From positions 101,638-165,637 of the forward strand of contig BTVY01000008.1 in the NCBI GenBank assembly GCA_045863335.1: 64,000 nt of DNA, read 5' to 3'. The DNA is from Candidatus Hydrogenedentota bacterium. GTDB lineage: Bacteria > Hydrogenedentota > Hydrogenedentia > Hydrogenedentales > SLHB01. The notes below the pieces were generated by a model that was not told where the DNA came from, searched no databases, and worked only from the letters and a program-made list of their open reading frames with translations. Shown in pieces: positions 22,497 to 28,685 of the stretch. The position numbers and the translations under genes were made by a program. Every line of letters starts with the position of its first letter. Position 1 is the stretch's first letter.

Positions 22497-23501
22497 TCAA
22501 CTGTCGACGAGTGCGCTGGTCGCGCCAATCCAACTGCTGAGGTTTTCGCCATATGTGCCAACATCACTGTCCTTCGCGGGGTAATCGTCGTCGTAGCGCA
22601 TGAAGCTCACGTGACCGTCGAAGTACAGGATGTTGACTCCGCCAGGAATGTGGTTGAAGGCCTGGATAGCAGGGAAATCCTGGCCGAGGACACTCAAAGC
22701 CGCTCCGCCGTAGGAGTCGAGCATGATCGGCAGTTCGGATTGGGCCGTCGAACTGCCGGCAGGATTGTTGATGTCGGTGATGAAGTAACGCTCGACGCCT
22801 TCCCGCATCCGGTTATACTCGTTGGGGAGTGGGGCGCCATTGTCATCGGTCGTGCCGGTAACGCCGTCGCCACCGATGAGTGCGGTTTTCAAGGCTGCGG
22901 TCTCAAGGGTGTCCGGCAGTTCGTAATTCGGACGGGCTTCGATTGCCCACGTGCACCCGTACAGCTTGGCCGACGATTCTTCGGGTACGGTATACGCGCC
23001 GGAACCTGGGTTGAAGAACTTGTGCAGCGTCACGCCCACGATGACGTCTTTCAACCGGGACGACGTATTAACGGCATAGGGGATGTAGTAGTAGGACGGA
23101 AGCATGCCGGTCAGCGAGTCCAGGCAAGCCTTCGCGTCCGGTTCGACCGGCGCCGACTCGGCCGCGAGCGCCAGCCGGTCGGTAAAGCCAAAGTCTGCGT
23201 TCGCATCTGACGGGCAGACCGCGATGTTCATATCCGTGAGGTACTCCGGATAGACCTGGACCCCGTCGATCCCCAAAACAAAGGTGTTACCAAAACGGGA
23301 GACCGGGGGAAGCAACTCGCCGTCACTTTCGTTGGAGTACATCTTAAAAACGAGTCCCCACTCCTTCAGGTTGTTCTGACATGACGCGCGGCGTGCTGCT
23401 TCCCTGGCTCTTGCTAAGGCCGGCAGCAGAATCGCGGCCAGAATGCCGATGATTGCGATTACGACCAGCAATTCGATTAGTGTAAAACCTCTTCGTTGCA
23501 T
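22497..23501 (-). CDS. DUF1559 prepilin-type N-terminal cleavage/methylation protein with H-X9-DG C-terminal motif
   Basis: [70 protein letters not shown]. Confidence 0.95.
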
Positions 23502-23587
23502 TACTCCATCCTCCCTCGTTGATCGATGAGTCCTTTCCCGGAACCTTCGGGTACGCGCCCGAGCCCGAGTACCCGCAGTGGAGGGAG

Positions 23588-23603
23588 AGCAAGGTTGGTG
23601 CCA
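23588..23603 (-). promoter_or_regulatory. Sigma54 (-24/-12) promoter of the DUF1559 gene
   Basis: Minus strand reads TGGCAC-CAACC-TTGCT, about 90 bp upstream of the ATG. Confidence 0.85.
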
Positions 23604-23680
23604 TCGGACCTGTCAATTCATAAAACATTTTATAGCAGCAACTTAAAACACCTCCTCTTCTCGTATCGCACAGACAATTC

Positions 23681-25609: not shown

Positions 25610-27572
25610 TGATACTCTCGTACGTCGTGTGGGCGCTCTCGCGATCCGTTCTGGTAATTTCGGATGCCTCTTCTGACGCGTCCCCGATATCATGGGCGAC
25701 CGGAAGCGCGACGACGAACCGCGTTCCACGATCGGGGGCGGGCACGATCCGAATCGATCCGCCATGCCGTTCGGCAATTTTGCGGCATACGGCCAGCCCT
25801 ACTCCACTCCCCTCCCGAGACTCGCTGCCGTTCATTCGTTGAAACAACGCGAATATTCGATCGGCGTCTTCCGGGTTGATCCCGGGCCCGTTGTCTTGCA
25901 CGCAGATGGCGCAGAATCCCGCGCGGCCTTCATGATCGGGAATCTCGCTGGGAAAAACCTGGACCCGGGGTGTCGAATGGTCGTCGCCGTACTTCAATCC
26001 ATTGTCGATGAGGTTCTGGAGCAGTTGCTTCATTTGCATCGGATCGGCGTCGATGGTGGGAAGGGGTTGAACGTCCACGGTGCCGCCGGTTTCGTGAATT
26101 CGGACGGTCAGATCCTCGACGGCGTCGAGTGCGATTTGCGTAAGATCCACGGTTGAAAAGGGGTTTCCGTGGGTCGTGACGCGGGACACCTGAAGGATAT
26201 TGGTGATCAATCGTTGCATGCGTTCGGTGCACGAATCGATGAGATCGACGTACTCTTCGGCGCGGTTTTCATGGCCATCGCCCACAATTTTGCGGAGGCT
26301 CTCTGCGAGCACCCGGACTTTGCGGAGGGGCTCCTTGAGATCGTGGGATGCAATGACGGCGAAATCCTGGAGGTCGGCATTACTAATGGCCAGTTTGCGG
26401 TTCAATTCCTGCAAAGAATCGTTGGAACGTTCGAGCAGTTCCAACAGTGAATCCCGTTCTTCCTCGAACTGAATGCGAGCGGCAATCTCCTCGGAAAGAT
26501 GTTCATTGGTGCGCTGCAATTCCGCGGTGCGGTGCTTGACGAGGGCTTCCGCTTTGCGGCGCTGCCGAATCTGGGCCATGAAATGATCGAACACTACAGC
26601 GGTAAGGCTTAACCCGGCCAGCAAGCCAAGCAAGGGCTGCCACGTAAACGCTTCCGCGAGGTGCGCTCGCGTGGGCGTACATACGAAGAGCCACCGCCGG
26701 GTCGAAGCCAGGTCGACGGGCCCCGTGTAGTGCATCCGGTCGAGAAACAGGATCTCCCCTTCCTCCACGGGTACACGAGTGACGCCTTCCGCTTCCGCGG
26801 AACGGTGGTACAACGCGGATTCGCCGGAGGTGGCAAATGCATCAAACACGTCCAGGTTCACGCGCTCCTGGTTTAAGCGTCGCAACGCGACATCCACCAC
26901 CTTTTCGATTTGAAAGACTCCCGCGACGAACCCGGTGAAGCGGCCCCGTGCGGCGTCGTCGCCGGATAGCCCCGCCTCGGTCGTATGGACGGCGGACACG
27001 ACAAGTGCCGTGCTTGGCCCGAACAGATCCTGGATCTGCGCGCTGTTGGCGATGACGTACGTCTTGCCGGATTCCCGGGCAAACTGGAGATAGCGTGCAG
27101 CCACCGGATCGGCGGCCAAGTCGAATCCAACGATATCCTCCTGGTTTCCAGGCTCGCCCCGGGCGATTGCCGCAGCGATGGGATAAGACGCGGAATCTGC
27201 CGGCGCTGCGGACGGCACCCAGCAGAGCGTGAGTGTGTGGGCCTGCTCTTCGCCCATCGCGTCCAGATTGCGCTGAAACACTTCTTCGGGCGAAACGGAT
27301 GACACGGCAAGGGTGATGGCGGACCACTGGACGGCGTGGACATTGGAGTCCAGGAGTTTCTCAATGGAACGAATGTAGGTCTTGGCCTGCTCGCCGAAGA
27401 TGTATTGGGCAGCCTGTTGATCGCGTACGCGCAGCGCGTTGAAGAACAAGACGGACGCCACCACGCCCACCAGCAATGTCAAGACGGCTGGTCCGTAGGC
27501 CCGCACGCGTCCTTCCTTGAGGAGGTTGTGCCACCGTCTCGGGGTTGCCTGTTCTTCCACTCGCGTATCCAT
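25578..27572 (-). CDS. CHASE-domain sensor histidine kinase
   Basis: Two TMs around an extracytoplasmic CHASE-like region (IVGFDL), H-box ASHDLKEPL, NLIDNGLKY, DNGPGI, GSGVGL. Confidence 0.9.
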   Translation of the reverse strand: MDTRVEEQATPRRWHNLLKEGRVRAYGPAVLTLLVGVVASVLFFNALRVRDQQAAQYIFGEQAKTYIRSIEKLLDSNVHAVQWSAITLAVSSVSPEEVFQRNLDAMGEEQAHTLTLCWVPSAAPADSASYPIAAAIARGEPGNQEDIVGFDLAADPVAARYLQFARESGKTYVIANSAQIQDLFGPSTALVVSAVHTTEAGLSGDDAARGRFTGFVAGVFQIEKVVDVALRRLNQERVNLDVFDAFATSGESALYHRSAEAEGVTRVPVEEGEILFLDRMHYTGPVDLASTRRWLFVCTPTRAHLAEAFTWQPLLGLLAGLSLTAVVFDHFMAQIRQRRKAEALVKHRTAELQRTNEHLSEEIAARIQFEEERDSLLELLERSNDSLQELNRKLAISNADLQDFAVIASHDLKEPLRKVRVLAESLRKIVGDGHENRAEEYVDLIDSCTERMQRLITNILQVSRVTTHGNPFSTVDLTQIALDAVEDLTVRIHETGGTVDVQPLPTIDADPMQMKQLLQNLIDNGLKYGDDHSTPRVQVFPSEIPDHEGRAGFCAICVQDNGPGINPEDADRIFALFQRMNGSESREGSGVGLAVCRKIAERHGGSIRIVPAPDRGTRFVVALPVAHDIGDASEEASEITRTDRESAHTTYESINAHDQCITYR

Positions 27573-27584
27573 CGTGGGCGACGC

Positions 27585-28685
27585 CTAGTCCGTTCCGGAG
27601 ACCGACGCCATGACCAGCGCAAGGTCATGCCCAAAAGTCCCCGGCGGACCGTTGGTTACAGGGAATTCGCTGAAGAGTTTGACGAATCGCACGTGTCCGT
27701 CCAAATACAGGACGTTCGATCCCCCCGGAATATGATTGAAGCGAGCCGTTCCTCCAAGGAGTGGCGCATTCGCCGCCCACGTATCCAACACAACGGGCAC
27801 AGAAGATTCGCTGGCGGCGTGGGACGCGGGGGAATTGATATCCGTGATGGCCAGTCGCTCGATGCCGCGACGCAACCGGAGATACCCTTTGGGCATTGGT
27901 TCACCGTTGTCGTCGAGTTGACCGTATCCAGCCTGGTAGAGAGGGTCATGTGGAATGTCCTTCGCACCTAACCAGCCGTAGGAAACGAAAACTTTCCGGG
28001 GACAACCTTGATTTTGCATTTCGGCTGCGAGGACGAATTCCGCGTTTCCCCGGTCGCTTTCGTCAATTGCGATGAGGATTCGGCTGCGAATGATGTCCTT
28101 GATTTGAGAAGAGGTTAACGTCATGTACGAGAGATAGGTATACGACACACCCAACGAAAGGAGCGCGTCGACGCACAGATCCGTGGCGCCGGCGTCCATG
28201 GCATCCTGGATGTAGGTTCCCAGATTCAGATCCAGACTGCCCACAAACTCGCGCGCCCGCGAGTCCGAGGGGCATAACGTAATATTCACATCGGTCATGT
28301 AGTCGGGGAACAAAAGGGCGCCGCGAATCCAGGACAAGGTCGGTGTCCCGTTCAGATGCCATTTTTGCGTCGCCGGGTAGAGGCTCCCCGGATCCTCAGA
28401 GGTATACATCTCCAGAACCAGTCCGAGTTGGCGGAGGTTGCTCTGGCAAGTCGCCCGCCGCGCCGCTTCCCGCGATCGGGCAAGCGACGGAAGCAAAAGG
28501 GCCGCGAGAATCGCGACAATGGCGATCACCACGATAAGCTCGATGAGCGTCAGTCCGTCATGTCTGCCCAGACGCGAACGTGCGGGAAGACGCACCCGGG
28601 CGACTACAGAACGGCCAAGTGACTGTATCTCGTTCTCTTCTCTTATCTCATGCACGTCCATGCAACAAACCGTATGTCCCGCCAC
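27585..28685 (-). CDS. Second DUF1559 prepilin-type protein with extended leader (start uncertain)
   Basis: [60 protein letters not shown]; ends 12 bp before the kinase start. Confidence 0.92.

Follow-up and report, generated by a model that had tools for sequence, protein, structure and literature searches.

A probable two-component, sigma-54-dependent switch for one DUF1559 prepilin-like protein in a Candidatus Hydrogenedentota bacterium

The gene order pilS-pilR-pilA is found in Myxococcus and Geobacter loci, and the PilS sensor is a multi-transmembrane (multi-TM) membrane domain without a periplasmic sensor domain. Other sensor kinases depend on a periplasmic accessory protein, as exemplified by the pairs LuxP-LuxQ, TorT-TorS, and ChvE-VirA. 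In Pseudomonas aeruginosa, the type IV pilin gene pilA is under two-component control by PilS-PilR (PMC6058289, PMC5979040). According to these papers, PilR sites consist of a NifA-like TGT-N11-AGA sequence and GTCT elements (PMC6058289), and PilS interacts with PilA, and FimS with minor pilins, in the inner membrane (PMC6058289, PMC5979040). The locus described here lies in a stretch of 64,000 nt (hereafter the window; contig BTVY01000008.1, positions 101,638-165,637 of the forward strand, assembly GCA_045863335.1) from a Candidatus Hydrogenedentota bacterium (GTDB Hydrogenedentia; Hydrogenedentales; SLHB01), an uncultured organism from sludge. It brings together a CHASE sensor histidine kinase, a sigma-54 activator, and two genes of the DUF1559/H-X9-DG family, the upstream paralog (UP) and the downstream paralog (DN). 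Judged from sequence comparison, it is probably a two-component switch that depends on sigma-54 and is dedicated to a single member of this family, DN.

In several environmental phyla, the DUF1559/H-X9-DG proteins make up one of the largest paralog families, and they are without known function. P. limnophila is credited with 68 DUF1559 paralogs of unknown function, two of which are essential (PMC10632474); R. baltica carries 74 DUF1559 genes, some of them stress-responsive, whose products are called solute-binding-like (PMC2754498); and proteins of T. immobilis with N_methyl and SBP_bac_10 domains are found in membrane-type fractions (PMC8567305). No description of how the family is regulated was found in the literature searched, subscription journals lying outside its coverage, and within that coverage the statement of the first-pass annotation of this DNA that no regulatory system had been described for the family holds.

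The host genome (6.75 Mb in 105 contigs, 99.4% complete) contains 37 PF07596 genes, and the data sets holding the region come from sludge, bioreactors, and wastewater. The lineage had been taken for PVC-related, which is wrong: the records of close relatives are named 'MAG: Candidatus Hydrogenedentes bacterium'. A scan of one genome for each of 185,579 species recovered nine loci of the UP clade, six titled Candidatus Hydrogenedentota/Hydrogenedentes, two uncultured Nitrospiraceae/Nitrospirales, and one uncultured bacterium, the tenth match being an ordinary Planctomycetota paralog with 31% identity. Since the relatives bear Candidatus Hydrogenedentota/Hydrogenedentes names, both the DUF1559 expansion and the circuit sit, by these names, outside the PVC group.

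The kinase, the activator, and the promoter of DN

Five genes form an array on the minus strand at 21557-28685 of the window, with the regulatory elements lying between the activator gene and DN:

27585-28685, minus strand: UP, a long-leader DUF1559/H-X9-DG prepilin-like paralog, first gene of the regulatory operon
25578-27572, minus strand: CHASE sensor histidine kinase (from domain matches, hydropathy, and catalytic motifs)
23873-25609, minus strand: REC-PAS-like-AAA+-HTH sigma-54 activator (from domain matches and motifs)
23674-23741, minus strand: putative upstream activating sequence of nested TGATACA/TGTATCA dyads, the main dyad centred at about 23716
23604-23673, minus strand: AT-rich spacer between enhancer and promoter, 60% AT (51-66% in congeners)
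23588-23603, minus strand: sigma-54 promoter TGGCACCAACCTTGCT, an exact TGGCAC-N5-TTGCT with its GG at 23602-23601 and its GC at 23590-23589
23502-23577, minus strand: predicted 5' untranslated region (UTR), about 76 nt long; it contains the Shine-Dalgarno sequence GAGGGAGG and, near its 5' end, a hairpin CGGGTAC...GTACCCG
22497-23501, minus strand: DN, a short-leader DUF1559/H-X9-DG prepilin-like protein of 334 aa, putative output of the switch
21557-22381, minus strand: secreted SGNH/GDSL hydrolase with signal peptide MPGLIRALIVCLCLVGFVHA, cut before AEP

The four co-oriented genes reported by the first-pass annotation are present as described, all of them open reading frames (ORFs) of the minus strand, and their tight linkage is equally real. 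The gap between UP and the kinase gene measures 12 bp (27573-27584), and the kinase and activator genes overlap by 32 bp, given that the activator most likely starts at the ATG at 25609. The kinase matches CHASE (PF03924; 44.8 bits for a cut-off of 25, over profile positions 71-189 of 189), HisKA (42.5 bits), and HATPase_c (95.4 bits). Its topology comprises a first TM segment at residues 23-50 approximately, the periplasmic CHASE domain, a second TM segment around residues 314-333, a coiled linker, HisKA, and HATPase_c, and its H-box, N-box, G1, and G2 motifs are all intact. With CHASE placed between two TM segments and followed by HisKA and HATPase_c, the protein fits the CHASE-domain sensor histidine kinases; both orthologous kinases scanned also carry CHASE (56.8 and 83.2 bits).

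The activator matches REC (64.4 bits), Sigma54_activat (PF00158; 219.5 bits), and the Fis-type HTH_8 (52.7 bits), and it retains an intact Walker A motif (GETGTGKE, residue 293), GAFTGA (residue 340), and Walker B (LFLDE, residue 361). Its Walker A and B motifs, GAFTGA, and C-terminal HTH fit the NtrC family of bacterial enhancer-binding proteins, and the REC-PAS-AAA+-HTH architecture recurs in six of six orthologous activators scanned. Among NCBIfam models its best matches are AtoC, ZraR, NifA, and NtrC, all below their cut-offs, and no PilR-specific model occurs among the best 25 of its 104 NCBIfam matches.

The intergenic region between the activator gene and DN spans 371 bp. The sigma-54 promoter that had been called near-consensus proves to be an exact match at 23603-23588, and TGGCACCAACCTTGCT is the only exact TGGCAC-N5-TTGCW in the window. 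According to the usual -24/-12 numbering, the established convention for placing sigma-54 start sites, transcription should start near 23577. The leader predicted from this start ends in GAGGGAGG-N8-ATG, its Shine-Dalgarno block being kept in all five genus loci. The 5' UTR hairpin was considered as a conserved element and dropped, the fold being present in the window and in its closest relative (G005) only and differing in three other congeners. A search of Rfam with 23400-23950 returned no family at E <= 1.

The enhancer-like sites described by the first-pass annotation are also present. Heptamers TGATACA, TGTATCA, and TGATACA stand at 23730-23724, 23708-23702, and 23687-23681; their number in the 64 kb (three) equals the chance expectation (2.97), yet all three lie within 50 bp. 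The main dyad has 24-nt arms (23691-23714 and 23718-23741) that are 75% complementary, it is accompanied by three further nested dyads, and its centre lies about 139 bp upstream of the predicted start site. The AT-rich spacer noted between the two elements could be a bending region; no IHF consensus (at most one mismatch) was found in it.

The combination is specific within the host genome, which carries a single copy of rpoN and 33 sigma-54 activator-domain matches, 27 of them strong (E < 1e-40). Exact TGGCAC-N5-TTGCW sites number 22, several of them in front of plausible sigma-54 targets, and the genes behind them, identified by their N-terminal sequences only, include rpoN, flgB-like, ammonium-transporter (amt)-like, and DnaK-like genes as well as several response regulators. 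A zero-mismatch sigma-54 site within 500 bp upstream is found for one of the 37 PF07596 genes, DN; five others have sites with one or two mismatches, all without a full TGGCAC. TGTATCA-type heptamers were not detected upstream of any other paralog when all 37 genes were scanned, so that both the exact -24/-12 site and the heptamers are unique to DN among them. The GATACA-N13-17-TGTATC dyad occurs once in the genome, at this locus, and the pattern of invariant enhancer columns likewise occurs once in the 6.75 Mb.

Conservation of the array, transcripts, and neighbouring genes

The kinase sensor half was found in 10 of the 133 genomes of the order, corresponding to 4 of 64 genera, and in 10 proteins at E <= 1e-10 in a collection of 5.8 billion proteins, a search that scored the 8000 best word-sharing candidates. 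The loci compared with that of the host genome (G000) come from its five congeners (G001-G005), from another genus of the same family (G117), from a second family (G033 and G045), and from a third (G090), and a metagenome locus (L043) was added by a clade-alignment scan; a single-protein metagenome scan found no relative. All five congeners carry the array. The order UP-kinase-activator-DN-GDSL is complete in G001, G002, G004, and G005, and the contig of G003 ends after the activator. In G117, kinase, activator, and DN are present on a contig cut inside the kinase gene; in G033 and G045, UP, kinase, and activator are followed by two DUF1559 genes; and UP-kinase-activator is present in G090 and L043. 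UP is adjacent to the kinase in all 10 loci readable downstream of UP, and a DUF1559 gene follows the activator in eight of the nine loci readable there. The synteny is conserved across the genus, and that of UP, kinase, and activator across three families.

The sigma-54 promoter can be followed through these loci:

G005: TGGCACCATGGTTGCT, no mismatch
G002: TGGCACTTCCGTTGCT, no mismatch
G001: TGGCACTGGCATTGCT, no mismatch
G004: TGGCATTCCTGTTGCT, one mismatch
G033: TGGCATCTCAATTGCA, one mismatch
G045: TGGCATTACATTTGCA, one mismatch
G117: CGGTACAAAGCTTGCA, two mismatches, GG and GC kept, 70-85 nt before a GTG start

It is kept 100 to 105 nt before the ATG in five of five comparable genus loci, the window included, and in three loci outside the genus with one or two mismatches and a shorter distance to the start. 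The N5 spacer is different at every promoter and the flanks have diverged. The intergenic regions of the genus align with a mean column identity of only 54%, and the conserved islands in this alignment are the promoter, an enhancer block with the consensus TGnTACACAATTGnnACAnATGTGTACCAA, and the Shine-Dalgarno sequence. Inverted repeats with a TACACA/TGTGTA core are found in G002 (perfect 17-nt arms), G117 (perfect 8-nt arms), and G090 (14-nt arms, 86% complementary), and none reaching the threshold was found in G001 or G004. Between the activators of the two genus halves, identity is only about 40%. Such a pattern would be expected if a functional sigma-54 promoter were accompanied by a co-evolving activator site.

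Across families, identity amounts to 56-61% for UP, 37-41% for the kinase, and, in partial alignments, 31-42% for the activator. Because the outputs vary while the UP-kinase-activator core is constant, and because UP is more conserved, UP would appear to belong to the conserved sensing or regulatory module and not to the output. The variation of the outputs is illustrated by G090, in which a GGGCAC-N5-TTGCT site with upstream TGTGTA-type repeats precedes a divergent gene for a 684-aa Big_2 protein, and by G045, in which a further sigma-54-like site, TGGCATTATCATTGCA, is oriented divergently from UP and faces the genes of a 650-aa protein and a GDSL hydrolase. A GAGACAC-N4-5-TGAG(A/T)CA repeat lies upstream of both G045 promoters.

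The two divergent proteins (650 aa, G045, L040:1112-3064, minus strand; 684 aa, G090, L039:4204-6258, minus strand) are large and secreted, with DPDGD-type repeats and an anchor-like tail made of MPAAG or LPVTG, a hydrophobic stretch, and RRRK or RKRS. They are barely related to each other, their common part being a short C-terminal anchor-like stretch (E 1e-6), and the 650-aa protein has only a weak partial match in the host genome, elsewhere on the contig.

A weak hint of a DN-sized transcript from the predicted promoter comes from the metatranscriptome X18, in which one whole contig of 1088 nt with 12 differing letters covers 22481-23568. It begins 9 nt after the predicted start and runs 16 nt beyond the DN stop, ending within the T-run that follows a 4-bp mini-hairpin, 19 nt before a GC-rich hairpin. 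Its depth is 45, compared with 2.5-6.5 for pieces of the activator gene, although such depths cannot rank genes; stretches of the region without cover in X18 are likewise no evidence of silence. In the DNA run X2, a contig continues across 23424-24149. A further run, X19, was set aside as RNA evidence, being probably DNA.

The GC-rich hairpin and two other features adjoin the array:

22430-22462, minus strand: GC-rich hairpin with 15-nt arms and loop CCT, 35 nt after the DN stop
23851-23872, minus strand: short inverted repeat with 9-nt arms and a 4-nt loop, directly after the activator stop, without a T-run
29194-29961, plus strand: second GDSL/SGNH hydrolase gene (Lipase_GDSL_2, 80.9 bits), divergent from the UP operon

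In the window, the arms of the hairpin contain one mismatch and one G.U pair. An equivalent GC stem of 11-14 bp follows DN in five of five genus loci (L022-L025 being the equivalents), one of its positions pairing as T.G, C-G, or T-A in different loci. The stem has the form GGCCGG(T/C)CCGGC..., and its 12-mer is present in eight copies across both strands of the genome, perhaps as a terminator-type element that is used repeatedly. A scan for T-run terminators called nothing after DN or the activator, the hairpin being without a T-run. The hairpin is likely a terminator, an attenuator, or a 3'-end stabiliser, and the conserved stem fits partial termination before the SGNH gene. The regulatory operon may end at the shorter inverted repeat.

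The SGNH hydrolase at 21557-22381 is conserved downstream of DN in G001, G002, G004, and G005 (71-73% identity) and may be a read-through member of the output unit; a sequence search of the PDB with it returned no match at E <= 0.01. On the other side of the array, no sigma-54-like site with up to two mismatches was found in front of the divergent hydrolase gene. An 86-aa ORF (28871-29131, plus strand) with an AAAGGAG Shine-Dalgarno sequence lies between this gene and the UP operon, and the two may form a small divergent operon. Further neighbours of glycan-processing type lie at 33802-38574, 45055-48153, 5929-7422, 18068-18982, and 19158-21407; the types represented are a BNR_2 sialidase-like protein, a sodium:solute symporter-NanM/Kelch fusion, Abhydrolase_7, GH123, a sulfatase with an FGE-type maturase, and DUF6259. 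Among the neighbouring ORFs of the window that were scanned against Pfam, none was recognised as a pilus-machinery gene.

Elsewhere in the window, sigma-54-like sites TGGCACGATTCATGCT (52765-52780, minus strand, one mismatch) and TGGTATCTAAATTGCA (53208-53223, plus strand, two mismatches) precede divergent multihaem-cytochrome/cytochrome-b fusion genes (50590-52581, minus strand, and 53281-56181, plus strand). An XylR_N-type sigma-54 activator gene is encoded nearby (57594-59267, minus strand), and this group looks like a second sigma-54 unit. In the rest of the genome, the exact site TGGCACGTGACTTGCT (C12:16557-16572, plus strand) lies 22 nt before the rpoN reading frame, and sigma-54 may therefore control its own gene.

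The proposed circuit and the role of UP

According to the proposed mechanism, UP, the CHASE kinase, and the activator would be made from one tightly packed operon. The kinase would sense a periplasmic or extracellular cue via CHASE and phosphorylate the REC domain of the activator, which would then bind the dyad enhancer about 140 bp upstream, its GAFTGA-bearing AAA+ domain opening the sigma-54 promoter at 23603-23588. The resulting transcript, largely monocistronic and starting near 23577, would encode DN, and some read-through past the conserved GC hairpin may reach the secreted SGNH esterase. We infer the phosphotransfer, the activator-enhancer binding, where transcription starts, what kind of signal is sensed, and any contact between UP and the kinase. 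The signal is possibly related to glycans or to esterase substrates, a suggestion of low confidence made because of the flanking SGNH hydrolases and the sialidase-type, NanM-fusion, GH123, and sulfatase neighbours.

The first-pass annotation had proposed this chain of kinase, activator, and sigma-54 promoter with DN as its output, and it finds strong support in the synteny, in the promoter and enhancer footprinted among the relatives, in the single rpoN and the other sigma-54 promoters of textbook type in the genome, and in the uniqueness of the DN promoter and enhancer among the 37 paralogs. A number of points nevertheless weigh against it. The promoter motif alone reaches only about p = 0.05 per window, its chance expectation being 0.05 per window and at least one match occurring in five of 100 shuffled windows. 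The G117 promoter has two mismatches, the enhancer sequence varies among relatives so that the identity of the binding site rests on position and dyad symmetry, and G090 lacks a downstream DUF1559 gene. Of the REC-PAS-AAA+ architecture with GAFTGA and Walker A previously assigned to the activator, the motifs, REC, and AAA+ stand, and the PAS portion stays below its Pfam cut-off (PAS_9, 19.2 bits for a cut-off of 27), orthologs scoring higher. The RNA and DNA runs are kept as contigs, which give no proof of RNA ends or levels; the DN-sized contig appears in one RNA study only; and in the RNA-labelled run X3 the promoter is spanned by a contig (23117-24419) whose depth is flat at about 7, as over the whole region, which may reflect read-through from the activator gene or DNA carry-over. 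The phylogenetic tree considered below is a quick version.

With about 27 activators in the genome, another one could serve the DN promoter. The adjacency of the two-component system would then be coincidental, its own targets lying elsewhere, and binding of the activator to the enhancer is indeed predicted only. This explanation is very improbable given that the activator-promoter-DN arrangement recurs in eight of nine readable loci from three families, that the ninth, G090, has a similar repeat-plus-promoter unit in the divergent intergenic region of the operon itself, and that the enhancer pattern is found nowhere else in the genome.

By their scores, both paralogs belong to the DUF1559/H-X9-DG family: UP matches PF07596 with 40.5 bits, PF07963 with 27.0, TIGR04294 with 28.2, and TIGR02532 with 27.3, and the corresponding values for DN are 37.3, 35.8, 23.5, and 37.1 (cut-offs 23.3, 21.2, 19, and 16.3, respectively), the PF07596 matches covering only profile positions 4-38 (UP) and 2-28 (DN) of 268. 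The H-X9-DG label is borne out by the TIGR04294 model and not by the literal spacing, which is H-X10-DG in both; the expression H.{9}DG has no match in either paralog, and H318, D329, and G330 are invariant in the sequence alignment. Pilin models match DN in its N-terminal helix only (NF041775 with 36.9 bits, cut-off 400; GspG with 35.1 bits, cut-off 88.85), and the PDB sequence matches of DN are limited to the pilin helix (residues 2-72).

The long, atypical leader and G-LTLIE junction that had been attributed to UP are real and clade-wide, and they go with a non-Phe +1 residue. The predicted cleavage context of UP is RHDG followed by LTLIE, with Leu at +1, after a leader of 36 residues from the ATG at 28661 or 44 from the GTG at 28685. 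Protein P0001, 98% identical to UP, is called from an ATG that matches the 28661 start. A perfect TATAAT at 28700-28705 (minus strand) lies 15 nt upstream of the GTG and has no -35 match, so that the promoter scan was silent; if it is used, translation of UP is more likely from the ATG at 28661. In the UP clade, leaders have about 20-37 residues where the gene call includes them, compared with 4-9 followed by G/FTLIE in typical paralogs of the host; the +1 position holds L, F, T, or M, E+5 is retained, and a precomputed PF07963 match is absent from most members. The clade is small, with about 20 clusters at an identity of at least 55% in the protein collection, below which come the G033-type downstream copy (52%) and ordinary paralogs (at most 47%).

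A maximum-likelihood tree was built from 49 mature sequences, including 31 of the 37 host paralogs; the UP and DN sequences of the window were each represented once, under their own name, and four paralogs without the motif or shorter than 200 aa were dropped. The UP orthologs form one clade (98% SH-aLRT), as do the DN orthologs of the genus and G117 (97%), and both clades fall within one subfamily (98%) together with only two other host paralogs. Sister to the UP clade is the first of the DUF1559 genes that lie downstream in G033 and G045. The two other host paralogs of the subfamily (C3:83354-85634 and C47:49771-52140, both on the minus strand) lie directly downstream of LacI-like and GntR-like regulators, labelled by N-terminal sequence only. 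The idea that DUF1559 genes generally lie behind such a regulator was rejected, a homolog of one of these two regulators being found within 3 kb upstream in only 3 of the 37 genes, two of the three being the query genes themselves.

An AlphaFold2 model of UP (121-row alignment, pLDDT 89.0, pTM 0.82) shows an N-terminal helix of 50 residues and a globular part of mixed alpha/beta structure. Foldseek retrieved no PDB match to it at E <= 0.001, and a VIA-align comparison with 48,161 chains gave mostly type IV pilins and pseudopilins, with weak Z values of 2-4.6 (3-4.6 for the best matches), and listed no solute-binding protein, although weak or absent matches do not speak against a fold. The most economical reading, to which the model lends weak support, is that UP has a pilin fold with a large insert and not a solute-binding fold.

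UP could act either as an accessory of the kinase, anchored in the membrane, or as a structural partner of DN that is produced constitutively. As a structural partner it would have no signalling role: it would be a minor-pilin-like primer or a heteromeric subunit, sharing the operon of the regulators so as to be present before DN is induced. We hold this tentatively to be possible, and several observations speak for it. UP and DN share a subfamily and common C-terminal motifs, the UP clade keeps G-1 or A-1 and E+5 and with them the look of a prepilin-peptidase substrate, its model is a pilin-type fold with a large insert, and the gene that follows the activator in G033 and G045 is a sister of the UP clade; moreover, the host genome encodes two A24 prepilin peptidases and 19 T2SSE-family ATPase matches above the Pfam cut-off. 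What speaks against a purely structural role is that G090 keeps UP, kinase, and activator without an adjacent DN-type gene, that the kinase is the neighbour of UP in all 10 readable loci despite changing outputs, and that leaders several times the usual length throughout the clade suggest a different handling. That same conserved adjacency is what a direct co-sensor role of UP with the kinase rests on, a role that we nonetheless consider somewhat doubtful. A complex prediction of UP residues 66-366 with the kinase CHASE residues 48-312 gave a score of 0.00 and no verdict, and it weighs neither for nor against binding, having been run with separate alignments on the soluble domains only, without the TM segments or the kinase dimer.

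A bolder version of the co-sensor role makes UP a signalling pilin which, through its long leader and altered +1 residue, would be an obligate co-receptor or inventory ligand of the CHASE kinase and would steer the sigma-54-dependent production of envelope proteins. Unlikely as this is, it would have consequences: the controlled outputs would comprise DN, SGNH esterases, and, in other genera, large anchored surface proteins, and UP would provide the first function for any DUF1559 protein as well as a new class of pilin-coupled two-component sensor. Less probable still is an inventory control of the PilS type, in which the kinase would monitor the inner-membrane pool of UP, DN, or both via their hydrophobic N-terminal helices and adjust DN transcription, CHASE being a second input. 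The succession of kinase, activator, sigma-54 promoter, and pilin-like gene, as in pilS-pilR-pilA loci, argues for it, and the kinase, with two TM segments and a large periplasmic CHASE domain in place of a multi-TM PilS sensor, argues against it.

Comparison with described systems

As a dedicated, conserved, and compact switch for a single paralog, the locus would offer the first regulatory handle on the DUF1559/H-X9-DG family. With about 370 bp of DNA and two regulatory proteins, it is small enough to be rebuilt in a laboratory host in order to find the inducing signal, and the conserved linkage of the sister paralog to the kinase makes a signalling role directly testable. The association with secreted SGNH esterases points, with low confidence, to substrate capture or envelope remodelling.

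Like the Planctomycetota DUF1559/SBP_bac_10 family, the family is multi-copy here (37 genes), and both paralogs match PF07596, PF07963, and TIGR04294. Unlike it, the host belongs to Hydrogenedentota by the names of its relatives, and UP represents a rare long-leader subclade with a non-Phe +1 residue. As in the LuxP-LuxQ, TorT-TorS, and ChvE-VirA pairs, an exported protein is encoded beside a sensor kinase and could present or modulate its signal, and the Pfam name of the UP family, SBP_bac_10, hints at a solute-binding role as in accessory-protein kinases. By contrast with LuxP-, TorT-, or ChvE-type accessories, the model of UP finds its consistent, if weak, structural matches in pilins and pseudopilins and not in solute-binding proteins, and UP would be anchored in the membrane by a pilin-type helix.

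The closest parallel remains PilS-PilR-pilA, with which the locus shares a membrane kinase and an NtrC-type activator encoded directly upstream of a prepilin-type gene with a -24/-12 promoter and an upstream site, as well as a pilin-type protein plausibly linked to the kinase. It differs in several respects. The sensor is a two-TM periplasmic CHASE kinase where PilS is multi-TM; an additional PAS-like region is present in the activator, whose best NCBIfam matches (AtoC, ZraR, NifA, and NtrC) fall below threshold; the dyads are built on TGTATC/GATACA, unlike PilR sites; the regulated protein is a 334-aa DUF1559/H-X9-DG protein and not a type IVa major pilin; and a second, long-leader paralog heads the regulatory operon. 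Of the PilSR-like circuit suggested by the first-pass annotation, the gene order and the logic stand, whereas membership of PilS/PilR falls on the architecture of the kinase, with its two TM segments and periplasmic CHASE domain. Because the kinase sensor is of the CHASE type, the activator is not established as a PilR ortholog, and the target is a DUF1559 gene, the locus is best regarded, by analogy, as working like pilS-pilR-pilA but not as a member of that system. It appears that Hydrogenedentota, a phylum documented largely by metagenomes, re-use the logic of pilS-pilR-pilA with another type of sensor, CHASE, and another pilin-like family.

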